A stretch of DNA of 64,000 nucleotides from Naegleria gruberi (lineage: Eukaryota), in the NCBI GenBank assembly GCA_000004985.1, contig GG738901.1. The stretch is one strand, 5' to 3'. Made by a program: the position numbers and the translations under genes. Below are positions 915-61,916 of this stretch, piece after piece (within the stretch, counting starts at the first letter, position 1; each line of letters opens with the position of its first letter). The notes under the pieces were generated by a model. It searched no databases. It was not told where the DNA came from and was given only the letters and a program-made list of their open reading frames with translations.

Positions 915-2633
915 ATGTCAGCAACACTAACAAACCTCTCACACGATGATCTGTTTAATATTCTCGATTTTATTTATCCCTTCTTTTCAGAATATGTCAA
1001 GGCAGTAGGAGGAAAACAATTCGAAGCTCAACATAAACGAGAATATTTAGCCAAGATAATTTTCGGAATTATGAAAGGAAATAATGAGAGGAAGGATTGG
1101 ATTTTGGATTTTCGTGGTAAACACTCTAAAATTATGGGAATTAAACTTGTTTCCAATTTGAATTATAATGAATACTTTTACAAATCGCTCGACGATTCGA
1201 ATGTTTATGTTCCTGCTTTATATTTGAGAAAGTTTTATGAGGATTTAGTTAAGGAAGTGAAGAATTGGTTACTCATTGCAAAGAATGGTCTTTTCTATGA
1301 AATTTTAATGCAAAGTCACATTCCAATAGTTCAACTTTTTTGGGAAAGTTTATTTCACATTATTTAGAGATACTCCTATTATTATGGGAAGTATGAAGTT
1401 TAAACAATATTACAATTTGGAATTGCCAATGATTCAGGATTATATTTTGGATAATATTATTGTGCATGTGATGAAGGCAGTGGAGGAACCAGTTTGGTTA
1501 TTCGAAACTTTTGTTTTCAATGAAATTTCATCTAAAGATGCCCATAGTTTGGGATTCAAAAGTTATCTACGACATTACCAGTTAGAAGAAGGTGAAAAAC
1601 ACGAATTGTATCAGGATGTTTTGGTGGAAAAGAAAGATTGGACGAGTTTGGCAACTGACAATCATTGGGAAGGTTTCTTGATGTTTCTTTCGGATTGTTT
1701 TAACAGATATCCAACTATTTTAAGTGATTCCAAATATGTAGACTTTATCAATTCTCAATTTGAAAAAGATCTAGGAAGGATTTCAAAATTTACTACTGAG
1801 CTTGCCAAATTCCTTTACCTTGACAGAAATATTCCGATTAATCCTATAATTTCAAACAAGTTGTTTACTCTGTTATCATTCACACCAGTTTTTAAACAAA
1901 TTCTAGAAAAGAAACTGAATGAATTAAGGATAACGACAAGGAAAGAAACTCGTTTCTTGCAAATCTCTTTTTAAGAGATTCACTACTTTCTTCCTCTATT
2001 TTAAATTTACAATTCGAAATAATTGACATGCATTTAGATTATATGGACGAATGTTTGGATAGTAAGGTGATTGATTCACACTTCTCAAAGTGCCCTGTAG
2101 TGACTTATTTCATAGAGGGTGCCCTAATGATGGAAGATTTAAGCGATCCATTGAAAAGTTCCATGATTGTTATTGAGTACATTGAGAAATTTAGGAAATT
2201 ATTCGAAAGGTTCAATAGAAAAAATTTTGGTTATTCAATTTATAGAAATATCATAACATTGTTTTCAAATTTCACCCGCAGTGGTCTTACAGAAGATTCA
2301 TATGAATGGCAGTAACGTTTTATAATCTTTACTGAACTATTCCAAAACCTGGTTTCAAATAAGATTGACGATTTACCCGAAACTGACCTATCTTTTATTT
2401 TCAGATATACCTCCAATGAAAAGATTATCACCTTCCTATTCGAACAACCACCACTATTCCATCAAATGTTAGCAAGATACATTCCAGATAGAATTAATGA
2501 AAATCTTTTGAAAATTATCGAGAAATATGTTGGCAATAACAATTCATATTATCAGAGGAATCAAATTGCAATATCCAATGATGAGAAAAATCTCAATGCT
2601 AAATCTACTACCACTTCTACTTTAAGATTATAA
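915..2633 (+). CDS. Hypothetical protein, about 570 aa, encoded in four collinear segments (915-1367, 1384-1974, 2028-2311, 2405-2633)
   Basis: Four same-strand ORFs abut each other. Segments 3 and 4 join cleanly through a 93-nt GTAACG...TTTCAG intron (2312-2404, phase 1; spliced junction ...SYEW-Q-YTSNEK...). Junctions 1/2 and 2/3 each need a 1-nt frame change inside short windows that are open in both frames (1330-1367 and 1923-1974). I could only find 20-22-nt GT..AG candidates there. The cause may be a micro-intron, an indel in the sequence, or a pseudogene. There is no recognisable domain. Confidence 0.4.
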
Positions 2634-3480
2634 GAAACACATTCTCTTCTTAAGAATGTTGTTATAGGGTTGACTGATTAATGTTGTAATTTATACATAA
2701 GTTTGTTGACCATTTCCATTAGTAGGAGGAGTATAATAAGAAGGTTGTGGAGTAACATAGGTTGGTGGTGGTTGATTGACCATCATTGGTTGACCGTATT
2801 GTGGTTGATAAGGTTGTTGAGTCATCATTGGTTGACCATATGGTTGTTGTGGTGGATATGGTTGACCATAAGGTTGTTGTTGAGGTGGATAATAAACACC
2901 AGGTCCTGGATTTTGAATAACAACTGTAGTGACAGGTGGCATTGTTGGTTGAGCAGTGACAAGAGTAGAAGGCATTGTTGCTACTCCAATGGCAGCTGCT
3001 GCTTGTTGTTCTTGAGCTCTTCTCATCATCATAAGTCTTCTCTTTCTGGAAGCAGCACTAACAATAATGATAATTGCAATAAATATTATGAAACCTGGAA
3101 TTCCAAATCCTAAACCATATCCTAAAGCATCATAATCTCCATAACTATTCGAAACACAAACATTGGAAGAACAAGTTTGGGAAGAAGAACAACATGCATA
3201 ACTAGAAGCAATACATGTTGAATAACCAGATTTTCTACAACAAGTTTGTCCAGATAAGCAATAAACATAATTAGTGGAACCTGTTACTGAGCAACAAATA
3301 CTATCTTGAACAGCTGACACTTGGCTTTCATTGAGAGATGAGAAAGAAAGTTCCCCCTTTAATGAATTATCACCATAAGTTGTCAAACGGGCAGAGATTT
3401 TGGCACCTGACACGAGGAGTAATAACACAACTAGTGAGCTGGCAATTTGGACCCATATTCTAATTTGCTCTTTGATTTGA
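2605..3480. repeat. Segmental duplication, copy 1 (about 97% identical to 6605-7480)
   Basis: Direct repeat seen by eye. The segment includes the last roughly 30 nt plus stop codon of gene 915-2633 (…ctttaagattataagaaac…cttaagaatgttgttat(a/c)gggttgactgattaatg…) and almost the whole membrane-protein gene. The copies diverge at about 3437/7440. Confidence 0.8.
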
Positions 3481-3899
3481 GTTCTTTTCAAAGTTGGAGC
3501 ACTCTTTTTGATGAAACTAATTACTTTTGGAAGAAGGTTGTTGTTGGTTGGATCTGGCTTTGAAGATGAAGGATGAAGTGCTTCGTTTTGATGAATATCG
3601 CACCTTGCTTGGTGGTGATGAATTACCTTCAACTTTACATTACAAAATTCATTGCATTGACATGAAATATAGTAGTAAAGTTGAGGAGTTCCTACTTCAC
3701 ACTTATTGAATTCCTTTCTTTCTGAGTAAATGTCTTTCAATTCATAAATCATATTGTCCTTCATAACTGCTCGGCATAAAGAAGCTTGCTCAGTCACTTC
3801 ATGAACAGAGTGCACCTTCCATGGACGTTGTAAGTGGTTACAAATTCTATCGAACACATCTTGGTGCTCAATATTTGAGAGTAGTGGAGTATAACTCAT
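2691..3899 (-). CDS. Cys-rich single-pass membrane protein with PPxY/PQY-rich cytoplasmic tail, copy 1 (402-aa ORF; the N-terminal 140 aa is unrelated to copy 2 and has no signal peptide)
   Basis: The C-terminal 260 aa match copy 2 almost exactly. This part has about 30 Cys in the ectodomain, a TM segment IPGFIIFIAIIIIVSAA, a stop-transfer SRKRRLMMMRR, and a tail with repeated PPQQQPYGQPYPPQQPYGQP and a PPPTY (PPxY) motif. Upstream of the duplication breakpoint the ORF continues into a different sequence (MSYTPLLSNIEHQDVFDRICNHLQRPWKVH…CQCNEFCNVKLKVIHHHQARCD…) where copy 2 has its signal peptide. This may be a chimeric or derived gene, or an undetected intron. Confidence 0.5.
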   Translation of the reverse strand: MSYTPLLSNIEHQDVFDRICNHLQRPWKVHSVHEVTEQASLCRAVMKDNMIYELKDIYSERKEFNKCEVGTPQLYYYISCQCNEFCNVKLKVIHHHQARCDIHQNEALHPSSSKPDPTNNNLLPKVISFIKKSAPTLKRTQIKEQIRIWVQIASSLVVLLLLVSGAKISARLTTYGDNSLKGELSFSSLNESQVSAVQDSICCSVTGSTNYVYCLSGQTCCRKSGYSTCIASSYACCSSSQTCSSNVCVSNSYGDYDALGYGLGFGIPGFIIFIAIIIIVSAASRKRRLMMMRRAQEQQAAAAIGVATMPSTLVTAQPTMPPVTTVVIQNPGPGVYYPPQQQPYGQPYPPQQPYGQPMMTQQPYQPQYGQPMMVNQPPPTYVTPQPSYYTPPTNGNGQQTYV

Positions 3900-4825
3900 T
3901 CTATTTTTTTTGCTTGTTGTTGATGAATTGTTCCTTATTGTTGTTTTGTGGTTCTATTGCAAGATATATGTGTTGGTGTGTTGTGTGGTGTTTGTTGTAT
4001 CGTTAAGAATTTTTTTGATTGGTTGAACAATTGGCGCCATGTTTAATTTCCGTGTTTTGCCTTTTAGGAACAATAAAATTTGCTGTTTAAGAACAAAAAA
4101 TTGCAAATTAAGATGGATTTCTAAATTGTTCACAAATATGTACTTTACTGTGCTGGATGTAATGGAAAATAATGCTACTCAAATTAAGATATTAGACTTC
4201 CTTAAAAGTCAAAAAGACTAAGACACAAATTACAGTTTCAAGCGAGGAGCAGGGGTAGAAATCTTACTTTTAATTTAGGGTTCATCAAAAAATTGCGAAA
4301 TAATTGGGGTAAACAACATTATTTATTTATTTATTTCTTCTTTCGTGCTCTACTAGAGTTTCTCTTTACTGCTTCTTCAAATTGTGAATTCTTTGGTCCA
4401 CGTTTTTGTTTCTATAGCGGTTCTTCTTGTTCCAATTCCTTCTCTTGTTAAGGCTATGGAATTATCGTTGCTGAGAAAGTCTTCTTCACTTTTTCTTTGT
4501 TATGATGGGGTGAAGTACAAAATAATTGTATCGTGCTGGTTGTTGTGGATTAATCTTCCTTTCTATTTACAAAAGTGTATAACCAATTACCATCTCTACT
4601 AAGGTAATATATCCTTTAGTAATTTCTTGATGGAAATAGCTCTTGGCATTCATGAAGCGAAGGTAAGGTGTTTTATTGTAGGTGCAGTGGAAACATTTGG
4701 GAGTGCCTGCTTTTGTTTTGGTAGAGGATTTGGTTCCTTGAGGTTTTTTTAAATATTTACAACAAAGAACACAGCAGAAGAGGTTTTCGAAAAGATAAGA
4801 ACAGATTCGTGACAACAACTTACAA

Positions 4826-4960
4826 CAGTTGGATGGAAAACGATGCATTCGGTCAACTCTGGGAGAAAGACTCACTGAATTATCTGAGATTATTGTGTGC
4901 CTCCTTTAGGTCTGATCCCCCAAGCTCTTTTCCATCTAATCGAGAGCGAACGGAACTTTT
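4826..4960. repeat. Dispersed non-coding repeat, copy A (about 120-130 nt, similar to 5588-5700)
   Basis: Shared blocks are TTGG(A/T)T(G/A)GAAAACGATGC, TTTGGGA(G/AC)AAA(G)ACTCA, and ATTATTGTGT(G/T)CCTCC(TT/AA)TAGGTCTGAT(CC/A)CC(C)CAAGCTCT. The ORFs covering the two copies are in different frames, so the conservation is at the nucleotide level and not the protein level. Confidence 0.5.
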
Positions 4961-5587
4961 GAAGTGCTGTAGTGGCCAACTTCTCATTGGTTCTCAATAC
5001 TATTAAGGATTTCCTTAAAAGTGAGAAAGGTTCCAAGAATGCTTAGTGTGGATCCATACACCGAATTGTTCAACAAATTCGAAGTTTATGGAGCTTTCCA
5101 ATGGTTCGTAGTGATTCACAATATTCCAAGATCCAATCCTCATACAATAGAATACTTTGCAACTTACCTTTCAGAAAGGGTATGTTTTAAACAATTTGAA
5201 GCCAGCTCTTCAATCTTTTGTAGACGTTGAAGGTTGGAAACTTAATGTTCCCAATGGTTTTGCTAGACTAAAGAAAGGACTTTCATAAGGGTTACTACAT
5301 TGTTGATAGAAAGAAACTAAAAAATAAATGGAGTTTCAGCTTATGATATTAAGAATTATATTGATTCCGTGGCTTCCCATAATGAATTCACAGAATGTGG
5401 CAGGAGAATTGCAAAAGTATTTTTCATTCCATCAGAGAAAAATTCAATTGCATACAAACTTTGCTAAGCCTTTTAAGCGATTGGAAATCATCACCAGAAT
5501 TGATAAGTATGGTAGAAAAAGAATGCGGAAACCACACCATCGACAGATTTGCAACATCAGAGTAGGCAACGACAATCCAATTCAACT

Positions 5588-5700
5588 CTTGGTTAGAAAA
5601 CGATGCGGTTCAAGAACTTTGGGAACAAAACTCAATCAATTATTGTGTTCCTCCAATAGGTCTGATACCACAAGCTCTATTTCACTTGATCCCATCAAAG
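5588..5700. repeat. Dispersed non-coding repeat, copy B (pairs with 4826-4960)
   Basis: See copy A. Same orientation, about 760 bp apart, inside a 2.7-kb gene-poor stretch (3900-6600) that has only short ORFs. Confidence 0.5.
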
Positions 5701-6604
5701 GATATAGCAACATTCGTAGTTCCTTTTTGGCTAACAGCTTACTGATCTTGCTAAAGATATCTTTTGAACAGAGAAGTGTTCCGCTCCAATGGCTTATAAC
5801 AGAGCATTACAACGAACTGCACAAACTATCAGGCAATCTTTAGTTCATGGCAGTCAAAGTGAATGGAATGCTCTCCTTTCAATGAGATTTCAGGCTTTAT
5901 CTACTGCTCTTGCAGAATCCACAGTCAAAAAGTATTCTTTAACTTATTCAGAATTTTCTTATTTCTGTCTACTCCATTATTTTAAAACATTCAGAAATTA
6001 GAGCCCCACCCTCTTGCAGTTCACAAAAAGCTCTACAGGTTGAATAATTTGAAACCTACGTTAGATTTCTATTCAAATTTGGAAGGATGGATCCGTAAAT
6101 TATTCCAATCAATTCTAGAATTCAAACAAGGTTTGAATAAGTTTTATTCACGAGCTGATATTGACACTTGATACTCCTTTTATCAGTTGGGTTTCTTTTG
6201 ATCTTTCTGGTCACAAAACAGACCAAAATTTGACAGATGAAGAAACTCCTATTGAGGAAATAAGAAATACTGTCCAGTTTATAACCTTAGAAGATACATG
6301 GATTATGCCAGATCGTGAGATGAAAATTTTAAGGATTTGGCAATTATTGAATAAAGACTTGATGTTATTTGAAAAGATTTCAAAGTTGGCTCAATCTTCA
6401 GCTAATTATCAAAAGATTGATGTTTGATTTCTTGTGTTGTTTCAAAATAAAGAACTTTAAAACACAAAAAAGTTGTTTTGAGACAGCTGGTAATTGGGTG
6501 CCTAATTCAAAAGTGAGATTGAGATATCAACGTAGAATTGGCCTTGCTACTCATGGTTTAACTACTTCTATTATGAGAACTGATTAATTGTATATATAAA
6601 TAGA

Positions 6605-7480
6605 AAAATGTCAATGCTGCTACTAGTTCAACTTTAAGATTATAAGAAACCGTTTCTCTTCTTAAGAATGTTGTTATCGGGTTGACTGATTAATGTTTAA
6701 TTTATACATAAGTTTGTTGACCATTTCCATTGGTAGGAGGAGTATAATAAGAAGGTTGTGGAGTAACATAGGTTGGTGGTGGTTGATTGGCCATCATTGG
6801 TTGACCGTATTGTGGTTGATAAGGTTGTTGAGTCATCATTGGTTGACCATATGGTTGTTGTGGTGGATATTGTTGACCATAAGGTTGTTGTTGAGGTGGA
6901 TAATAAACACCAGGTCCAGGATTTTGAATAACAACTGTAGTACCACCACTGACAGGTGGCATTGTTGGTTGAGCAGTGACAAGAGTAGAAGGCATTGTTG
7001 CTACTCCAACGGCAGCTGCTGCTTGTTGTTCTTGAGCTCTTCTCATCATCATAAGTCTTCTCTTTCTAGAAGCAGCACTAACAATAATGATAATTGCAAT
7101 AAATATTATGAAACCTGGAATTCCAAATCCTAAACCATATCCTAAAGCATCATAATCTCCATAACTATTCGAAACGCAAACATTGGAAGAACAAGTTTGT
7201 GAAGAGGAACAACATGCATAACTAGAAGCAATACATGTTGAATAACCAGATTTTCTACAACAAGTTTGTCCAGATAAGCAATAAACATAATTAGTGGAAC
7301 CTGTCACTGAGCAACAAATACTATCTTGAACAGCTGACACTTGGCTTTCATTGAGAGATGAGAAAGAAAGTTCCCCCTTTAATGAATTATCATCATAAGT
7401 TGTCAAACGGGCAGAGATTTTGGCACCTGACACGAGGAGTAATAACACAACTAGTGAGCTGGTAATTAGGACGAGAATTG
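6605..7480. repeat. Segmental duplication, copy 2 (pairs with 2605-3480)
   Basis: See copy 1. Confidence 0.8.
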
Positions 7481-7487
7481 ATTTCAT
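6702..7487 (-). CDS. Secreted Cys-rich single-pass membrane protein with PPxY/PQY-rich cytoplasmic tail, copy 2 (261 aa, apparently intact)
   Basis: ATG at 7487 in A-rich context. Signal peptide MKSILVLITSSLVVLLLLVSGAKISA. Cys-rich ectodomain, one TM, a basic stop-transfer, and a PQY-repeat tail containing PPPTY. The + strand ORFs 2703-3113 and 6693-7133 are W/L-rich antisense artefacts of the CAA/CCA-rich tail. Confidence 0.65.
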   Translation of the reverse strand: MKSILVLITSSLVVLLLLVSGAKISARLTTYDDNSLKGELSFSSLNESQVSAVQDSICCSVTGSTNYVYCLSGQTCCRKSGYSTCIASSYACCSSSQTCSSNVCVSNSYGDYDALGYGLGFGIPGFIIFIAIIIIVSAASRKRRLMMMRRAQEQQAAAAVGVATMPSTLVTAQPTMPPVSGGTTVVIQNPGPGVYYPPQQQPYGQQYPPQQPYGQPMMTQQPYQPQYGQPMMANQPPPTYVTPQPSYYTPPTNGNGQQTYV

Positions 7488-8323
7488 TTTTTTTAATGGG
7501 GAAAAGTAAGAAGGAATTTATTTTGTTGATATTTACAACATAATGTTGATGAACCTGAGAGCTGCCTTTCAACAACATTCGAATAGCACTATGGTGGAAT
7601 AGAGATAGGAAGGTGAGGTGTCAATGTCAGCAGTATCTTTTGTTTGGTACTTTTTTAGACCCCAAGATTCGTTTAGGCTACGATACTTGCCAAAAATTAT
7701 GTTGTATTACGTTTTCTCAAGCCTGTTTGTGTTTCACAAAAAATAATTAGCGATTAATTTGAAAACTATATTTGTATTGATGTGTTTTGAATTCGTCCAA
7801 AAAGTAGTGAGGTGTTGTGACATTAATTTCTACTTGTTGTTGCATAGAATTGTTTTTCAGTGTAGTTTTACACTCTAACTCTATCGATTCAATCAATTGA
7901 TTGATCTACATACAACAGTGAAAGATTTTGACAATTCCTTACGATTATCTCTAAAATAATTATTGAACCAAAAACTTGTTTTATTGTTCTGGTATTAAAA
8001 ATTGAACAAATGCTCAATACTATTGCTCAATTTCTTAGTCTTTTTTTGAATGTCTTGTGATATTCAGGGTGAGAGGATCTGTGACAGGGCTTTTTTATGA
8101 TGACCAAACACTGTTAAGTTGACAAGCAAACATCTTTAGTAAACTATTTTTAACAGATATTCAGTTCTCAAAACCATAACATTTAAACTTTTTCAATTTT
8201 TACGAATTCAATAAGGAAAACAAATTCGAATAGAATTTCAATTCGTTCTAAAAATCTTTGTCATTAAGTTCACTATTCACATGTCCAGCACCATGAACTT
8301 GATTCCAAAAATCATTAAAAAAA

Positions 8324-9808
8324 ATGCTTAAAATCAGTTCTACTACTGCCTTCACGACTCGCTCACCAACAATCAAACAACAATTGCAAAAACAAATCTT
8401 TTCCGATGATATTTGCTTTGAAATTTTATCATTTCTTGATTTTAAATTTATTCTAACGAATTGTTGTTTAATTTCTCATCAGTGGGAGAATGTCATCAAT
8501 GTACAATCTAATTTATCAGTCATTTTCAATAATCAAAAAGTGACGAATGAATTTATTGATAAATTAATGAAAAATAGTTATTTGAAACGTTTCGTTTCGT
8601 TGAAAACTAGAGAAAGAAGCTTTTTGCATGATCGAGAAAAAGTTTTGAAACTTGTTGGAATGATGCAGAATTTGAAATCACTCTCCATTGTTGGTAATGG
8701 ATTAGTGGATGAACATTTGAAAGAAATTAGTGAAATGAAAGGTTTAACTTTACTCGATGTGAGTGAGAATAAGTTTGGAAAGGAAGGTGCGGAAAAAATT
8801 AGTGGAATGGTTGGATTGACCACATTGAATATTAATGATAATTATATACTTGATGAAGGGGCTAAATTCATTGGAACGATGAAACAATTGACCTTGTTGA
8901 AAATGAAATATTGTGAAATTAGAGAAGAAGGTGCGAGAGCAATAAGTGAATTGAAAAATTTAACATTTCTCAATCTGCATGGTAATTTTATAGGTGATAA
9001 AGGAGCCAGCTATATAAGTGAAATGGTCAATCTGACACATCTCAATGTTGGTAGCACCCAATTGACAGCTGAAGGGGCAAGACATGTTAGTGGACTCAAA
9101 AATCTGAAATCTCTATTGATTCATACCAATCAAATTGGACATCAAGGAGCAAAGTGGATTAGTACAATGAAAGATCTGGAAGGGTTGACTTCACTTGATG
9201 TTAGTGGAAACTCCATTCTTGATCAAGGAGTACAATATTTGAGTGAAATGTCAAATCTGACACATTTAGATATTGGAAGTAATCATGTTGGAGTTAAAGG
9301 AATTGAATCAATTATTGGAATGAAAGGATTAATCTCGCTAAATGTCAGTAGTAATGATTTGGGATCATCAGGAGCAAAGTTAATCAGTGGAATGTCAAAT
9401 TTAACCTCACTAAACATTTCAGCCAATCGACTATTAGGTGAAGGAGCTAAATTTATTGGAGAAATGCATAACGTAACAATATTAGTTATCAGAAACAATG
9501 ATATTGGTGATGAAGGAGCCAAATTCATTTGTAAAATGAAACAATTGAAATCTCTCAATGCTGTGTATAATAGAATATCTTCGAAAGGATTTGAATCAAT
9601 AAGTGAAATGAAACAATTAACATCACTTGATATTGGTTACAACAGTATTGACTCAAAAGGAGCTAAATCTGTTCGCAAATTGAAAAATTTGACTTCTCTC
9701 AATGTCAGAAGTAATATGATAGATGATGAAGGATTGAAAGCTATTGGTCAACTCAAAATTCCTTATCTAACCACTGGATATCAACAAGCAAAACAATCCA
9801 ATAATTAA
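8324..9808 (+). CDS. F-box-like / leucine-rich repeat protein (ribonuclease-inhibitor / RanGAP-type LRRs)
   Basis: ATG in A-rich context. The N-terminus DDICFEILSFLDFKFILTNCCLISHQWENVI is F-box-like. It is followed by about 15 tandem repeats of roughly 24 aa with the pattern LxxLxxLDVSxNxIGxEGAxxIsxM. It is a paralogue of 61038-61916, which has the N-terminus DDICSEIILYLPHEFLLWSGVLISKQW. Confidence 0.7.
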   Translation: MLKISSTTAFTTRSPTIKQQLQKQIFSDDICFEILSFLDFKFILTNCCLISHQWENVINVQSNLSVIFNNQKVTNEFIDKLMKNSYLKRFVSLKTRERSFLHDREKVLKLVGMMQNLKSLSIVGNGLVDEHLKEISEMKGLTLLDVSENKFGKEGAEKISGMVGLTTLNINDNYILDEGAKFIGTMKQLTLLKMKYCEIREEGARAISELKNLTFLNLHGNFIGDKGASYISEMVNLTHLNVGSTQLTAEGARHVSGLKNLKSLLIHTNQIGHQGAKWISTMKDLEGLTSLDVSGNSILDQGVQYLSEMSNLTHLDIGSNHVGVKGIESIIGMKGLISLNVSSNDLGSSGAKLISGMSNLTSLNISANRLLGEGAKFIGEMHNVTILVIRNNDIGDEGAKFICKMKQLKSLNAVYNRISSKGFESISEMKQLTSLDIGYNSIDSKGAKSVRKLKNLTSLNVRSNMIDDEGLKAIGQLKIPYLTTGYQQAKQSNN

Positions 9809-9893
9809 CTAAAATGTATGAATGCGAATAAACTTGGGCTTTCACATGTTGTTGTTATCAATTAGAAACCAAGAAAAATGTTTAAAAATATTT

Positions 9894-9964
9894 CTCCCCC
9901 TGGTGGGTTGAATATCGACCTGCAGATTAACAGTCTGACGCTCTACCGACTGAGCTAAGGGGGA
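9894..9964 (-). tRNA. tRNA-Asn(GTT)-like with non-canonical T-arm (possible pseudogene)
   Basis: The minus strand reads TCCCCCT-TA-GCTCAGTCGGTAGAGC-G-TCAGA-CTGTTAA-TCTGC-AGGTC-GATATTCAACCCACC-AGGGGGA-G. The 7-bp acceptor stem, D-arm (A box) and anticodon loop CUGUUAA (GUU) are good. The T-arm region lacks the GGTTCGA box. The 3' half CCACC is present but its 5' partner is replaced by GATAT, and the loop is shortened. A T-run follows on the minus strand. Confidence 0.5.
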
Positions 9965-10514
9965 TACATTCAGCAATAAAAAATATTTATAATATTCGAT
10001 GGAAAAAACTGTTTCTTTCCATTTTTGGAATTAACAGCCAAAGAGGTAAATATAATCAATTCGGTTTATCAATTAATAAAACAAAAAATCTGATTTCCTT
10101 CATTGCATTGTAATCATTGCCCTTCTCAGACCAATCAAAATTTGTCCAACCCATGCACAAACTCCTTGAGTATTACAACTTTCGAATAATATGACTGAAT
10201 TTCTTAGCTCATTCCCAAAATCTCATTCACCTCTTATTCATCAAAAACACATCCACAATCCATACAATAACCAAAACTCACTCATCAATATCTTCAAGTT
10301 CATTCCTTTAATCTTCTATCTGTCTTCCATTATCTAAAACCAATTACACCTTCTAATTTTCATCATCTATGTAACCCAACAAGAAGTAAACTAATCACCT
10401 TGGGTAATCAAATTGCTGGGGGAACCTGTCAAATTCTGAGTCAACTAAACTTCATTTGAACCTTTTAGAGGTTGCAGTAAATCGGTTTTTCATTGCAATT
10501 CGAAACAAAAAAAA

Positions 10515-11119
10515 ATGAGAGAAAGTGGCGTAGTAAGTATTTGCATCTTGTGAAAACAATCTCACAAACTGTCTTTCTCATTACCCAAATGGTTTCTAAT
10601 ATACTTTCGAATAATAACAATATCGTTTTGTGATGATCATTATTAATAGGCTTATCTTCTTTGGTTAGGTTGTTGTATTGGATTCTTCGGTTTGCACCGT
10701 TTCTATTTGGACTCTGTCATTTTGGGTGTCATCTGGTTCTGTACTGCTGGTTTGTTCGGCTTTGGTCAATTGATTGATCTTAGTAAGTAATCTTATTTCT
10801 AATATATGATGATTTAACCATTATCTATTACTCACACTAACACACATTCCAACTTTCTCTGTTACGAAAATCAACTTTCGAATAACAATTTAATTCTAAA
10901 GTCCTCATCCCAGGTATGGTCGATGAATGTAACCGTAAATATGGTACTCCACAAGTTACCACTGCTGTTACCAACGTAACAACTTATCAAACTCAACCAC
11001 AAGTCCAACAACCATACGTCCCACCACAACAAGCATATTATCCACCACAACAAGGTTATGTTCCTCCACAACAAGGATATGCTCAACAACCTGCTGTTAA
11101 TGTTTATGTTCAACAATAA
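10515..11119 (+). CDS. TM2-domain protein with PQY-rich C-terminal tail; 3 exons (10515-10532, 10650-10782, 10914-11119), 119 aa
   Basis: Exon 1 is ATGAGAGAAAGTGGCGTA followed by GTAAGT. Exon 2 starts after TTAATAG and encodes [44 protein letters not shown], which matches the TM2-domain signature (G..G.HRFYLG....G..QL.T.G..G.W..ID); it is followed by GTAAGT. Exon 3 starts after CATCCCAG and gives [15 protein letters not shown]…[33 protein letters not shown]…*. Phases are 0 and 1, and the exon lengths sum to 357 nt. Confidence 0.6.
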
Positions 11120-11249: not shown

Positions 11250-12480
11250 ATGATGTTAAGAAGGAGAGCAGAAGATGAGTTGCAACTCTCAGCAACCATC
11301 ATCAAGGTTGAAAATCTCCAAACAGATCCCAAGTAAGTTTATTGCTTTATTCGAAAGTTGCCAACAACCCACATCAACAGCTCTGTCTATGCCATCCTAA
11401 CTTTCAATCAGGTCCAAAAGAAAGTTTCAACAGCCGACAAAAACCTCGAAGGAAAGAATAGTTACGAATGGTCTGACAATAACAATGTGCTCTTCAAGGA
11501 AATTCCAGAATTTTGCAATGAAAGACTCAAAATTGAAGTGAGGGATAAACAATCGGATAAGTTAATGTAAGGATTTTATGGATCTCAACTTATCTAATCA
11601 AATTGATTTATTTCATTACTATATTATTAATTGATATGATTTTAATGTCGTGCAATGATCATCATCATCAGGAATTAATTTATTATTTTAATTGATGATG
11701 ATCAAATTTATTTCCGAATGATCGATCAATTGAATGTAATATTAATAATAATAATACTATGTATTGATAATGATGAAAATGGATATATATTGGAAAATTA
11801 GAGGAATGACCACAACCTCACTTGAATCATTACCAAAGAATTTGGAAATTACACGTAAACTCAAACTCTACGATACCAAGAATGCAGTTGTTCACTTGAG
11901 GATGAAAGCAATTGGATTTGGAGTTGAGCAACGTTTGTTTGAGGTTCACTCTAAAATAATGCCCTTCCTCAGATCTATTCACACACCAACTGATGCCATG
12001 AGAAATGTTGTCATTATTCCAATGACAATGGAGAATTTCTTTGGATTGGAGCCAGCTATTGAGGCATTGAAGAAGATTAGAGAGAGAAGTTCTCCAGTGG
12101 CTACTCATGCTCTCTTTCCAGTCTTGTTGATTTTCCCTGGAAAGTATTTAGTGAGAGAGACCATTAAATTGACAGCTGCTTTGAATGGTTTGGTAATTTT
12201 TGGAATTACTGACAGTAAAGATAGTAGAGTTGAAATTATTCCATACAAGAAGAGTGAACCAATATTTGATTTATCAGTTGATGTGAATATTATTCACATG
12301 CATGGGTTGACTTTTGAGGCAGATAGTTTGTGTGTTAAGGCAATTAATCCAACAACTAAATTGGAAGCCTACTCGTGTGATTTATCAAAGATTTGGCCAC
12401 CTAATAGTAGTGTTGCTGATATTGTAAATTATGAATTCTTTGGAGAGGAAAATATGGACGAAGAAGAAGGTTTCTACTAG
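11250..12480 (+). CDS. C2-domain protein with uncharacterised C-terminal domain; 3 exons (11250-11332, 11381-11566, 11802-12480), 316 aa
   Basis: Exon 1 MMLRRRAEDELQLSATIIKVENLQTDP ends at GTAAGT (11333) in phase 2. The acceptor CAACAG at 11380 gives N-SVYAILTFNQVQKKVSTADKNLEGKNSYEWSDNNNVLFKEIPEFCNERLKIEVRDKQSDKL. A GTAAGG donor at 11567 (phase 2) and the acceptor …AAATTAGAG| at 11801 give I-GMTTTSLESLPKNL…. The spliced text …LKIEVRDKQSDKLIGMTTTSLESL… reproduces the C2-domain consensus (L.V.V.DkD....D.iG...i.L..l), and the exons sum to 948 nt. The track ORF 11358 starts at TTG. Confidence 0.6.
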
Positions 12481-12656: not shown

Positions 12657-14180
12657 ATGCTTTCAAACAACCTTCCCTCCACAGATGTCTCCACTCAATC
12701 AGTAGCAGCAGCAACAACAACTCTTCCGAATGGTTATTCTCGGGAGTGGCCAATCATCGTTGAAAATTTACAGAAAATTGCAAATAGAGAAAAAGTGTTT
12801 GGATCGATTGCAGCTTGGATTGAATTTGTAAAGGATTTGGATCAGAAAATTGTTGATGATTGTATGAATAATAATCGTGATGATGACGATGATGGTAGTG
12901 TTCAAGAAGTTTCCAGATCAACTGATTATCACTTTAGAAATTTATCATTCCTTTATAAAAAGATGAATATTTCGGACAAGAAGGAAGCAAAAGAACATTC
13001 ATTGATGAGTGAGAAGGAATTTATGGAAAAGGTTGTTCCAAAGATTGCTCAGTGGATTTTGGATTTGGAAAGAGAGTTTCCAAGTGGAAAAATTCCAGTC
13101 TTGATGATGAATGCATCTGGTGTTGTGAGATTGACCAAGAGACAGATCAGGTCGATTATGAGTTGTGCATTTTGTTGTTTATTCAGAGAAAGAGGAGATG
13201 TATCAAAGAAAAATATGGGTGTTTTCGAGTTTGGATTATTCTGGAGTGTTGCTTCACAAAATTTCCTAATGTCATTATTTCACTATTTTGAGAGGATGTA
13301 TAAATTAGACAATGATAGCTCAACAAGCAGTTCTTTGGATGAAATAATTTTATTTGAAAGGAAGGTTTTAAAGAACAATTATAGGCGATTCATAGAAGAG
13401 GAAATTTGCAAGAGTCAACAAAAGATGTGCCCTTTATTATTCAAACAAGGAAAGATTCAAGATAATCTTAATCACTTGATGGTTGATTTTGCAAATTGTA
13501 TGATTGGTGGACATGTGCTCGGTGGTGCAGTTGCACAAGAAGAGATTTTATTTGTTGAATGTCCAGAGCTTTTTGCATCCATTTTAATTTGCCCTCAAAT
13601 GCAAGTTCATGAAACTATTAAGTTCACAGGATTTGAGAGATATTCAAATTTGAAAGGATACATTAAGAGTATGACTTATGAGACCTATCTAGACAATCAA
13701 CCAGTAATCGAGAACGTAAGAAAGAATCAACTAATTGCTATGGATGCTCTGCAAGGAGTGGGAATTTTCCAATTCCAAAAAGAATTCATTCTTAGAGAAA
13801 TATTCAAAACCACCTGTGCTTTCACATCAAAAGAGAATGATTTCCTCAAAGATTCATCATCTGATTTACCAACATTAGAAAACGAACCTATTGCAAGTGG
13901 ATTCTGGGGCTGTGGAATGTTTGGAGGTGATAAGCAATTGAAAACAATCATTCAATGGTTGAGTGCTACTTTATGTAATAGACCTTCTCTAACTATTCAT
14001 CTCTTTTCACCTGAGGATGAGAAAATTGAACAAGATTTCAACACAAAAATACTTCCATTAATTGTGGAGAAGGAGTTAAGTCTTGGTCAAGTTGCAGATG
14101 CATTACTCAACACTTACCAATCAGTTAGAAAAACAACATCTTTTTCAATTTTTGAATTTCTTCATCAAAACTTCAAATAA
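12657..14180 (+). CDS. PARG: Poly(ADP-ribose) glycohydrolase (PARG)
   Basis: The PARG catalytic signature is DFANCMIGGHVLGGAVAQEEILFVECPEL (the GGG-X6-8-QEE motif). The downstream conserved block is ASGFWGCGMFGGDKQLKTIIQWLSA (compare …WGCGAFGGD..LK…Q). It is a single exon with its ATG in A-rich context. Confidence 0.85.
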   Translation: MLSNNLPSTDVSTQSVAAATTTLPNGYSREWPIIVENLQKIANREKVFGSIAAWIEFVKDLDQKIVDDCMNNNRDDDDDGSVQEVSRSTDYHFRNLSFLYKKMNISDKKEAKEHSLMSEKEFMEKVVPKIAQWILDLEREFPSGKIPVLMMNASGVVRLTKRQIRSIMSCAFCCLFRERGDVSKKNMGVFEFGLFWSVASQNFLMSLFHYFERMYKLDNDSSTSSSLDEIILFERKVLKNNYRRFIEEEICKSQQKMCPLLFKQGKIQDNLNHLMVDFANCMIGGHVLGGAVAQEEILFVECPELFASILICPQMQVHETIKFTGFERYSNLKGYIKSMTYETYLDNQPVIENVRKNQLIAMDALQGVGIFQFQKEFILREIFKTTCAFTSKENDFLKDSSSDLPTLENEPIASGFWGCGMFGGDKQLKTIIQWLSATLCNRPSLTIHLFSPEDEKIEQDFNTKILPLIVEKELSLGQVADALLNTYQSVRKTTSFSIFEFLHQNFK

Positions 14181-14326: not shown

Positions 14327-14400
14327 CCGCCCCACGTGGGGCTCGAACCCACGACCGTTGGATTAAAAGTCCAACGCTCTACCGACTGAGCTAGCAGGGC
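14327..14400 (-). tRNA. tRNA-Lys(TTT)
   Basis: Minus strand: GCCCTGC-TA-GCTCAGTCGGTAGAGC-G-TTGGA-CTTTTAA-TCCAA-CGGTC-GTGGG-TTCGAGC-CCCAC-GTGGGGC-G. It is a canonical cloverleaf with A and B boxes and anticodon UUU. Downstream on the minus strand the sequence is T-rich. Confidence 0.85.
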
Positions 14401-20777: not shown

Positions 20778-21362
20778 ATGGAAGACATACAGAAATTCCT
20801 ACTATCTACTCAATCAAACAATGAATTAGTAATAGAAACATTGAAAGACAGAATCAAAGAACTGGAAGCTAAACTCCCAAACAATGATCTTCTTATGGAG
20901 AATGCTCTTTTAAAGCAATCTAATGCAAACCTCAAACAACAATATGTGTTACTTTCCGATAAAATAGCAAACATGAACACCATGTTAGAACCACTTTCAA
21001 ATCCCTTATCATCTTTGGGCTCAGGTAGTAAACCTTTAAAGAAACTGACTCTTGCAGAGGCATTACTAAAAGAAAATATTGCTCCATTCAGAGGTGAATT
21101 GGCTGATGTTTTAGTCCCTCCACAAAGGAGAGAACGTCTTAGACATTGTGATTTTAATCCTGAAAATTGTTGTACATCCCTTCGTGAATACTGTAACAAG
21201 GCAACAGAAATCATGGGAGAAAGGATTTATTTTCCTGGTGAAGAATCTGAAAAGAAGAAGACTAAAAAGAAGTCTGTAAAGAGAAAGAAAGATGGTACTG
21301 AATCAGATGAAGAATCAGATAAGAAGAAGACTTCCAAAAAGAAGTCTGTAAAGAAAAAGTAA
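20778..21362 (+). CDS. Hypothetical coiled-coil protein with Lys/Ser-rich C-terminus (KKKTKKKSVKRKK…KKKTSKKKSVKKK)
   Basis: ORF with ATG. The N-terminal half has a heptad-like Leu/Glu/Lys pattern, and the tail is a duplicated basic repeat. Function unknown. Confidence 0.45.
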   Translation: MEDIQKFLLSTQSNNELVIETLKDRIKELEAKLPNNDLLMENALLKQSNANLKQQYVLLSDKIANMNTMLEPLSNPLSSLGSGSKPLKKLTLAEALLKENIAPFRGELADVLVPPQRRERLRHCDFNPENCCTSLREYCNKATEIMGERIYFPGEESEKKKTKKKSVKRKKDGTESDEESDKKKTSKKKSVKKK

Positions 21363-21466
21363 ATGGCGTTCAAGAACAAATACCTTGACTTTTTACAATA
21401 ATAAACACTGTCACTTAAAGTTTTTTCTCAATTTCCAGCATTGATTGGAAATTAAGAGTAAAAAAA

Positions 21467-42039: not shown

Positions 42040-42137
42040 AGTGTTGAGTAAATAAAAACTGATGAAACATTTAGACATCACCAAATATAATGTCGTTTTT
42101 TCCCGTAAATGAGAAATATTTGCATTAAGAACAAGAT

Positions 42138-42209
42138 TCCCGTGTAGTCCAATGGCTAGGATACCTGGCTTTCACCCAGGAGGTCCGGGTTCAATTCCCG
42201 GCATGGGAG
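42138..42209 (+). tRNA. tRNA-Glu(TTC)
   Basis: TCCCGTG-TA-GTCC-AATGGCTA-GGAT-A-CCTGG-CTTTCAC-CCAGG-AGGT-CCGGG-TTCAATT-CCCGG-CATGGGA-G. Canonical cloverleaf with anticodon UUC and an intact B box GGTTCAATTCC. Confidence 0.9.
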
Positions 42210-42214
42210 AATCG

Positions 42215-61037: not shown

Positions 61038-61916
61038 TTAATTTAGTTTAATAAAACTAGGTGGAACACTTGGAAAGTGTTTAATATATTCAATTCCTCC
61101 TCCATTAGCTATTTCGTCCCTATGAATATCGAGATATTTCAAATTCTTCATTTCACTAATCAATTTTGCACTATCAGCTTTCAAACGATTATCGAAAATA
61201 TTGAGAGCTGTCAGATTGTTCATTTCACAAATGTGTTTAGCTCCGTTGTGAGTTATATCACTGCAGGCAATGTCGAGTTTAGTCAACTGATTTAGTTCAC
61301 TTAAATATTTGGCTCCTTCTTTCTCAATACTATTTCTGTGAATACTGAGATCGGTCAATTGTTTCAATTTGCAAATTGATTTGACTCCCTCGACATCCAT
61401 TCTATTACAAGCAATATCAAGATATGTTAAATTTTCAAGTTGACTAATATATTCAGCTCCTTCATTTCCAATATTATTGTAAATAATATTGAGCTCTCTC
61501 AATTGTTTCAATTTACCAATCTCCTTGGCACCTTTTACTCCAAGTTTGTTCATTCCTATATCAAGCTTTGTCAATTGACTCATCTTTTGTAAAGCATCCA
61601 AAACATTGTCCAAAACTCCATCTTCCAACAATGTGTTTAATTGAAATTTCGCACCAATAACATTTTCCAAAAATTCACTTTGCATCATTAGTCTACTATT
61701 TTCTAAAGTGATACTTTGGGTAAAGTGCAAATTAATTTTGGTGAATTGTTTAATAATTTGCTTCCACTGTTTAGAAATTAAAACACCACTCCATAGTAGA
61801 AATTCATGTGGAAGATATAAAATTATTTCTGAACAAATATCATCGGGAAAGTTGAAATTATTCAGAGTTTTGATGCTTGTGGTTGTGGTGGTGGTGCTTG
61901 TTGTGTGATTAATCAT
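61038..61916 (-). CDS. F-box-like / RNI-type leucine-rich repeat protein (paralogue of 8324-9808)
   Basis: The first ATG in A-rich context is at 61916 (MINHTTSTTTTTT…). The track start at 62084 is TTG. F-box-like FPDDICSEIILYLPHEFLLWSGVLISKQWKQII, then about 9 repeats of 24 aa with the pattern L..L..LdI..N.iG.eGak.I..l. Confidence 0.65.
   Translation of the reverse strand: MINHTTSTTTTTTSIKTLNNFNFPDDICSEIILYLPHEFLLWSGVLISKQWKQIIKQFTKINLHFTQSITLENSRLMMQSEFLENVIGAKFQLNTLLEDGVLDNVLDALQKMSQLTKLDIGMNKLGVKGAKEIGKLKQLRELNIIYNNIGNEGAEYISQLENLTYLDIACNRMDVEGVKSICKLKQLTDLSIHRNSIEKEGAKYLSELNQLTKLDIACSDITHNGAKHICEMNNLTALNIFDNRLKADSAKLISEMKNLKYLDIHRDEIANGGGIEYIKHFPSVPPSFIKLN

Follow-up and report, generated by a model that had tools for sequence, protein, structure and literature searches.

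A 64-kb window of the genome of Naegleria gruberi NEG-M (contig GG738901.1; all coordinates below are positions in this window) contains two copies of a gene for a small cysteine-rich membrane protein, arranged in the form A-B-A, wherein a duplicated unit A (copies A1 and A2) lies on either side of a spacer B. This tandem duplication is genuine and fairly old. Sequence comparisons establish its boundaries, the identities of the spacer and of the new head of copy 1 (the gene copy in A1), a single-copy relative, and the absence of homology between the tail of this protein and that of a nearby TM2-domain protein. Taken as a whole, the arrangement is probably best explained by an old A-B-A duplication with a spacer of transposable element (TE) debris, a copy 1 that is a chimera of transposase and membrane-protein sequences, and low-complexity tails that arose in parallel.

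A tandem duplication and its single-copy relative

A self-BLAST of the window yields a single strong internal match, which pairs 2584-3452 with 6602-7472 (95.7% identity over 878 columns, 16 gap columns, E = 0). When the two units are aligned with MAFFT, 836 columns match, 26 do not, and 16 contain gaps, which amounts to 97.0% identity with gaps set aside, and the differences comprise 26 substitutions and three indels. Thus, the tandem duplication of about 97% identity that had been proposed from a first reading of the sequence (the original prediction) is real. The coordinates given at that time, 2605-3480 and 6605-7480, point to the right place, but their ends are off by approximately 20-30 nt, and the start-to-start offset of the copies is 4011-4020 nt by repeat finder rather than 4000. 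Identity is distributed unevenly within unit A, at 98.3% (749/762) in the coding part versus 91% in the 100-nt non-coding 3' part.

Unit A1 comprises the last ~16 codons and stop of a convergent plus-strand gene, a 57-bp intergenic stretch, and the membrane-protein coding sequence (CDS) from its stop to codon 6 (Table 1). The convergent gene ends in NAKSTTTSTLRL followed by a TAA at 2631-2633, and a relic of its last ~16 codons and stop, ending in NVNAATSSTLRL, persists in A2. The duplication therefore does include the stop and last codons of the upstream gene, as had been noticed originally. Decay at the left edge of A2 is graded. At the opposite end, homology stops at 3452/7472, which corresponds to codon 6 of copy 2.

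Copy 2 is the intact gene. Its product is predicted to carry a signal peptide (MKSILVLITSSLVVLLLLVSGAKISA), an ectodomain with ten conserved cysteines in the pattern CC..C..CC..C..CC..C..C, one membrane helix, an RKRR stop-transfer signal, and a disordered tail of 100 residues rich in proline, glutamine, and tyrosine (P/Q/Y). The coding strand opens ATG AAA TCA ATT CTC GTC CTA ATT ACC AGC (M K S I L V L I T S). When 5.8 billion proteins were searched by word index, a sole cluster matched, and its representative (P0001, from Logan run ERR1078381) is 97% identical. Two further homologues came from phmmer, run exhaustively against 1.84 billion representatives: P0006, whose cluster includes N. fowleri XP_044558924.1, and P0008, which is N. 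lovaniensis XP_044546796.1. The homologues from these two species are 233-245 amino acids long, begin with signal-peptide-type N-termini, lack the head found on copy 1, and share with copy 2 the cysteine pattern and a YGLxxGxPxGF membrane segment. Their tails, which are P/T/Q/M-rich and lack a PPxY motif, are quite different. The signal-peptide start of copy 2, originally described as normal, matches these homologues as well as the layout in a related strain (see below), and we infer that copy 2 is the working orthologue, keeping its native promoter, start codon, and signal peptide.

Judging from these sequences, the genes appear to form a Naegleria-restricted family of small cysteine-rich type-I membrane proteins. 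The ectodomain and its homologues match no Pfam family at E up to 10, Shisa and Granulin included. An AlphaFold2 (AF2) model of copy 2 contains a beta-hairpin domain at residues 56-106 (predicted local distance difference test [pLDDT] score 76-80), a helix at 123-160, and a tail scoring below 50; nothing below E 3.8 was found when this model was compared with the PDB by Foldseek, and phmmer of copy 2 against the PDB gave nothing significant. UniRef names the N. fowleri homologue ‘Granulins domain-containing’. We rejected a granulin identity because the Pfam Granulin model, a 12-Cys profile, is among the families without a match, and phmmer finds no granulin in the PDB. A scan of JGI metagenomes with copy 2 gave no match, and on an N. 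fowleri contig (L004) the membrane-protein gene is the sole element in common with the NEG-M locus.

Evidence for a single-copy arrangement comes from a 1526-bp contig of run ERR1078381 (Logan; L001), which carries one copy of A and no spacer, in the order left flank-A-right flank. The gene on this contig is an orthologue of copy 2 (97% identical) with the same upstream flank, which matches 7473-7703 (98.7%) and then 8119-8283, while the downstream flank matches 2373-2583 (98.6%). Thus, the contig links the left flank of copy 1 to the right flank of copy 2. Between the two upstream matches, a 416-bp stretch (7704-8118) is present in NEG-M and not in the related strain. Its ends are not GT...AG, which indicates an indel in a promoter-distal intergenic region rather than an intron. 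Neither the gene identifiers nor run ERR1078381 is mentioned in the literature.

The three sequences are roughly equidistant, at 97.0% for A1 and A2 and 96.4% for each of these against the related strain. Twelve sites are specific to A1, 12 to A2, and 17 to the single copy, and nine of the latter form one cluster that lies in the repeat array of the tail, as repeat slippage would give. We considered whether divergence is excessive inside A compared to its flanks (Fisher p 0.02), and rejected this idea because the nine clustered differences amount to one slippage event and the outer intergenic sequence is ~7% diverged. Likewise, we rejected the notion that the single copy is a single-crossover hybrid of A1 and A2, since A1-like and A2-like sites are interleaved along it (14 runs versus 13 expected). 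Synonymous divergence between A1 and A2 is ~0.04 (7 differences over 177 sites) and non-coding divergence is ~9%, compared to an inter-strain non-coding divergence of ~7% (8119-8283). Because the divergence between A1 and A2 resembles that between strains, the duplication appears to be about as old as the strain split, and the strain of run ERR1078381 either never had the duplication or lost it.

Table 1. Features of the duplicated locus and of the nearby TM2-domain gene.
Feature	Position	Strand	Basis
Duplicated unit A1, 869 bp	2584-3452	-	Self-BLAST, alignment, three-way comparison, boundary check
Copy 1 chimeric open reading frame (ORF), 402 amino acids	2691-3899	-	ORF list; exact database match XP_002672021.1 / NAEGRDRAFT_52539 ‘predicted protein’
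Tandem repeats building the copy 1 tail, periods 42 and 30 nt	2770-2880	-	Tandem Repeats Finder
Head, putative first ~148 codons of a Mutator-like (MULE) transposase gene	3453-3899	-	Homologues P0004 and P0007, context on contig L003, omega
Spacer B, 3149 bp	3453-6601		Missing at the single-copy locus of the related strain
DIRS1-like fragment 1, frameshifted	4790-5290	+	Three-frame translation; repeats D1/D2; P0005 tblastn
DIRS1-like fragment 2	5395-6430	+	Pfam Dam; P0005
Duplicated unit A2, 871 bp, with relic of the plus-strand gene end at 6602-6645	6602-7472	-	Self-BLAST, alignment
Copy 2, intact gene, 261 amino acids	6702-7487	-	ORF list; orthologue in the related strain; N. fowleri and N. 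lovaniensis alignment; AF2 model
TM2-domain gene, exons 10515-10532, 10650-10782, and 10914-11119	10515-11119	+	GTAAGT...AG introns; Pfam TM2; Tandem Repeats Finder

Transposon debris and the chimeric copy 1

The region between the two copies had been described as a gene-poor stretch of about 2.7 kb that holds its own dispersed repeat. The repeat is real, and ~2.7 kb remain when the ORF of the head is set aside, but the full spacer of 3149 bp appears from its sequence to be transposon debris that includes a MULE fragment and two degenerate DIRS1-like fragments, and it is these two fragments that constitute the repeat.

By three-frame translation, fragment 1 holds the C-terminal part of a methyltransferase (MT)-like domain (NSWMENDA..VPPLGLIPQALFHLI) and the N-terminal region of a putative tyrosine recombinase (YR). 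Fragment 2 has a putative MT-like domain (HTIDRFATSEN...VPPIGLIPQALFHLI...VVPFW) whose reading frame overlaps a candidate YR ORF, with an internal deletion of ~57 codons, and both fragments are 5'-truncated. The motifs IDRFATSEN and VPPIGLI are visible in the translated spacer. The fragments match each other as direct repeats D1/D2 at 72-81%, and the internal repeat pairs 4823-4941 with 5583-5691 at 70-81% identity. Furthermore, another N. gruberi scaffold encodes a predicted protein, P0005, that has 95% identity over 5789-5977 and 78% over 6013-6162, and matches fragment 1 in tblastn at 5172-5282 (51% identity). P0005 bears a tyrosine-recombinase-type ARPGQLANLSW...HKTDQ sequence, a resemblance at the level of motifs only, and has no match in Pfam (Phage_integrase included) or in a PDB search. 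DIRS1 elements carry reverse transcriptase (RT), RNase H (RH), and MT domains together with a YR (PMC3266345, PMC4738411), the MT domain being located within DIRS1 polyproteins (PMC4738411), and N. gruberi is reported to contain DIRS1-like copies that are degenerate (Piednoel et al. 2011, PMC3266345). An MT domain adjoining a YR ORF is a hallmark of DIRS1-like elements, and therefore we use this label for the spacer fragments. In the interval between the MULE head and fragment 1 (3900-4790), there is a 23-nt tandem repeat at 4056-4102, and a 102-aa ORF (4567-4875, minus strand) has no Pfam match.

Copy 1 is open far past the start of copy 2 (402 versus 261 amino acids), ‘re-headed’, as originally proposed, by unrelated sequence. 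This sequence is indeed unrelated to the membrane protein, but it is not anonymous, and appears to be the N-terminal region of a MULE-type transposase, encoded by the 5' part of such a gene. First, P0004, encoded on a metagenomic Naegleria-like contig (L002), is 74% identical to the head and shares its Met start; between the two, dN is 0.16, dS is saturated, and the ratio of these rates (omega) is 0.12. Second, P0007 aligns to head residues 7-137 (E 5e-7 by phmmer, 1e-11 by tblastn), and on contig L003 the P0007 ORF is followed 25 bp on by a 696-aa ORF with MULE and SWIM domains, the latter scoring 19.8 bits against a 19.6-bit cut-off. Our assignment of the head is based on this homology to P0004 and P0007 and on the position of the P0007 ORF ahead of the MULE/SWIM ORF. 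The head includes a conserved CxCx3C...HHH motif and is cut off internally where it meets A1. Its AF2 model is unusable (pLDDT 35). A tblastn search of the window with the L003 transposase gave no match besides the head. Since the locus lacks a MULE catalytic domain, terminal inverted repeats (TIRs), and a 9-10-bp target-site duplication, the head is a fragment and not an element. The L002 contig (ENA ERZ4903137 k141_931375) has a frameshift relative to the window at ~560-623, just after a KLK(V/I) motif, and its head homologue may be a pseudogene or contain a sequencing error.

Relative to copy 2, the first five codons and all upstream sequence of copy 1 differ, and the rest is homologous. 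At the junction copy 1 reads AGA ATA TGG GTC CAA ATT GCC AGC (R I W V Q I A S). Copy 1 has kept its native downstream flank and lost its promoter and codons 1-5, and directly ahead of its body, in the same reading frame, are the first ~148 codons of the putative transposase gene. The database protein that matches this ORF exactly sits on a 309-kb scaffold. Hydropathy peaks in copy 1 are located at residues 154-165, which is the former signal peptide, and 267-278, which is the membrane helix.

At both A|B junctions, transposon-internal sequence abuts host sequence directly, with neither transposon ends nor target-site duplications. Because element termini and target-site duplications are missing from the junctions, we favor illegitimate recombination over transposition. 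There are no inverted repeats of at least 40 nt and only one 23-nt pair at 83%. Pack-MULE capture and ordinary transposition were rejected on the same grounds, namely the lack of TIRs and target-site duplications. We estimate an about even chance that the event was one of break or replication repair, in which template switching led to the duplication of A and the capture of TE-rich filler DNA. An alternative course, in which a plain tandem duplication was followed by TE insertions and trimming deletions, is possible but, by the same estimate, less probable. In the resulting chimeric ORF of copy 1, the former signal peptide is an internal hydrophobic segment.

The right alternative to pose for copy 1 is the one put forward originally, which is a new N-terminal fusion or a dead copy. 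If copy 1 were a functional chimeric gene, the transposase fragment would provide a promoter, a start codon, and a cytosolic N-terminal domain of ~150 amino acids, and the old signal peptide would serve as a signal anchor, yielding a two-pass protein with the cysteine-rich domain outside and both ends in the cytosol. We consider this possibility unlikely, although many features of copy 1 are compatible with it. The 402-aa ORF is in frame from a conserved Met, and the source gene of the head is under purifying selection, as indicated by its omega of 0.12. All 249 body codons are intact, with no stop or frameshift, and the sole coding indel is an in-frame 9-nt deletion at 2929. Both hydrophobic segments are retained, which is consistent with the two-pass topology. 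Moreover, the higher identity of the coding part of unit A relative to its non-coding part is in keeping with function, as are the three synonymous and two non-synonymous changes on the A1 branch, over 177 and 579 sites, giving an omega of ~0.2 that is like that of copy 2. Single-nucleotide differences specific to copy 1 include those at 2721, 2860, 2990, 3156, and 3285.

However, five substitutions are too sparse to demonstrate the constraint with which they are compatible (binomial p ~0.09), and gene conversion from copy 2 could mimic the same pattern. Also, a join of this type has a 1-in-3 chance of being in frame, no homologue combining head and body exists among the 1.84 billion representatives, and it is not obvious what role part of a transposase DNA-binding region would have when attached to a membrane protein. 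It is quite improbable, in our view, that copy 1 is an expressed and selectively maintained newborn gene wherein the MULE 5' fragment, with its putative zinc-binding CxCx3C...HHH motif, replaced the secretory start. If this small chance proved true, a cleavable signal peptide would have been converted to a signal anchor, a cysteine-rich membrane protein would bear on its cytosolic side a domain derived from a transposase, and the locus would represent an early stage of transposon exaptation via duplication and fusion in a heterolobosean.

Several points weigh against the overall explanation that we prefer, which is an old duplication with a TE-debris spacer and a chimeric copy 1. First, copy 1 is without sign of decay, and it is not established that this copy is a dead by-product. 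Second, two of the Pfam matches that underlie the TE assignments fall below their cut-offs: that of the L003 ORF to MULE (E 0.005, profile positions 4-99 of 99) and that of fragment 2 to Dam (E 5.7e-5, 23.3 bits against 28.1 bits). Third, three-frame translation and repeat scans of 3300-6750 revealed no RT/RNase H, no gag, and no inverted terminal repeats (ITRs) or internal complementary region (ICR). Fourth, the single-copy contig could in principle be a collapsed two-copy assembly, or could reflect secondary loss of B by recombination between A1 and A2, and because of these possibilities it does not prove that the single-copy state is ancestral. Finally, the A-B-A layout rests on one assembly.

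This last point bears on the proposal that the duplication is an assembly artefact, raised alongside the original prediction as a collapsed and mis-resolved repeat. Either such a repeat or two alleles would have been wrongly placed in tandem in the Sanger assembly. NEG-M is reportedly heterozygous or polyploid, and the independent contig from a related strain has one copy with both outer flanks, both of which would favor an artefact. Nevertheless, we regard this proposal as highly improbable given the divergence of the copies and the layout of the junctions. The copies are separated by 26 substitutions and three indels, and their ~9% non-coding divergence is far above the allelic level. There are no Ns in the window. 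B is unique and is joined to A at two different, non-homologous points, and stacked alleles would set the right end of B by 7473 rather than at 6602. Likewise, the graded decay at the left edge of A2 is typical of real evolution.

Tails of the duplicated gene and the TM2 gene

The three-exon TM2-domain gene described originally at 10515-11119 is supported by the agreement of its exons, its GTAAGT...AG introns, and its match to Pfam TM2 (PF05154; 49.1 bits versus a 27.9-bit cut-off, E 6.7e-13, residues 5-50, profile positions 6-50 of 51). The product, like those of copies 1 and 2, has a P/Q/Y-rich tail. The original prediction suggested that this is one PPxY-bearing tail module, moved between genes by exon shuffling so that different membrane anchors acquired a common tail that may bind WW-domain or Nedd4-like proteins. 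The presence of P/Q/Y-rich tails in all three genes is correct, but they do not appear to be the same module.

Some observations do suggest a mobile exon. Exon 3 of the TM2 gene is exactly the tail that follows the domain, and the three P/Q/Y-rich stretches are the only ones in 64 kb, all within 8.5 kb. The longest string common to the tails, the hexapeptide YYPPQQ, is marginally unexpected (p 0.049), and a 64-nt local alignment of the tails at the DNA level beats codon shuffles. Also, exactly one PPxY, in the form of PPTY, is found in each of copy 1, copy 2, and the copy in the related strain. The hexapeptide and the DNA alignment count against independent origins of the tails, and it is possible that the tails have in common a short linear motif of the (Y)PPQQxY kind rather than an exon.

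Despite these features, tail shuffling is very unlikely. Smith-Waterman scores between the tails are within those of composition-matched shuffles (p 0.08-0.36), and composition-adjusted BLASTP gives E = 0.1 in a single pairwise comparison. The 64-nt DNA match arises because one peptide motif is written in strongly preferred TAT/CCA/CAA codons. No motif order is shared. The TM2 tail is built from a 21-nt repeat (PPQQxYV) present 3.6 times at 11006-11081 (Tandem Repeats Finder), compared to periods of 30 and 42 nt in the duplicated gene, where the copy 2 counterpart of the array is at 6781-6891. The TM2 tail contains no PPxY, and neither do the unrelated tails of the N. fowleri and N. lovaniensis homologues. 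Moreover, the duplicated gene is intronless, a single uninterrupted ORF with no exon boundary at its tail. The original note had itself allowed that the similarity might be only compositional, and this is what the shuffles and the lack of a common motif order indicate. Thus, the resemblance of the tails is best read as parallel low-complexity evolution, with each tail lengthening as a short Pro/Gln/Tyr unit of its own was amplified locally in tandem.

Neighboring features, implications, and known systems

Beyond the duplicated locus, an ORF at 8324-9808 (plus strand) encodes an RNI-type leucine-rich-repeat (LRR) protein (Pfam LRR_6, E 8.5e-46) with a weak N-terminal F-box and 72-nt repeats, and a second LRR gene at ~61197-61534 cross-matches it at 68%, indicating a dispersed family. 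An ORF at 12657-14177 is an exact match to N. gruberi NEG-M XP_002671948.1 (PARG), and a tRNA-Lys(UUU) lies at 14328-14400 (minus strand), just downstream of the PARG gene, which spans 12657-14180. There is also a tRNA-Glu(UUC) at 42137-42210 (plus strand), and a short local direct repeat at 21239-21366, with units of 57-59 nt that are 87% identical and 69 nt apart. Pfam searches of the neighboring ORFs at 915-2315 and 11764-12480 found no match.

Three sequences are not present in exact form in a 15-billion-protein collection: the 261-aa copy 2, the 494-aa F-box-like/LRR ORF, and the 118-aa TM2 model. The corresponding reference gene models may therefore be missing or different. Exact-protein look-ups with copy 2, copy 1, the LRR gene, PARG, and P0005 returned no encoding contigs. 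In terms of annotation, the chimera of 402 amino acids is listed in the reference proteome under ‘predicted protein’, and the intact 261-aa paralogue is not present as an exact sequence.

The event is an ordinary rearrangement of a known kind whose parts are well resolved, and its value for annotation is modest. It provides a clean and dated case in a protist of a host gene that was duplicated and fused to a transposase CDS, with neutral divergence of ~4-9% and a single copy in a related strain, and it delimits a small, apparently Naegleria-restricted family of cysteine-rich single-pass membrane proteins. It also offers a caution, since small membrane proteins can acquire P/Q/Y-rich tails independently when repeats expand locally, and a composition-aware test is needed before such tails are treated as common modules.

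Each component of the locus can be compared with a known system. The product of the TM2 gene is a clear member of the TM2 domain proteins, and is unrelated to, and not part of, the duplication. The membrane protein itself calls to mind the Shisa-like/STMC6 group of adaptors, whose members cross the membrane once and combine a Cys-rich ectodomain with PY-motif tails, and which serves here as a lead only. Copy 2 resembles this group in its signal peptide, small Cys-rich ectodomain, single membrane helix, and proline-rich cytosolic tail with a PPxY (PPTY). Unlike these adaptors, however, it matches no Pfam family, its cysteine pattern differs, and the PPxY is missing in the N. fowleri and N. lovaniensis homologues.

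The spacer is similar to DIRS1-like retrotransposons in that a putative MT-like domain is followed by an overlapping candidate YR ORF, a paralogue exists elsewhere in N. gruberi, and the copies are frameshifted and degenerate. Its two fragments are also side by side, and DIRS elements often sit in this way. In contrast to such elements, the spacer has 5'-truncated fragments only, without RT/RNase H, gag, ITRs, or ICR.

Finally, the chimeric copy 1 is reminiscent of Pack-MULE-type and other TE-host chimeras, since a host CDS is in frame with a CDS derived from a transposase of the Mutator-like family, and the TE gives the start codon and upstream region. The arrangement differs from a Pack-MULE in that the host fragment is not flanked by terminal inverted repeats or a target-site duplication, the host copy remains at its native locus on one side, and the junction falls within the transposase ORF, pointing to illegitimate recombination as the process that joined the two.

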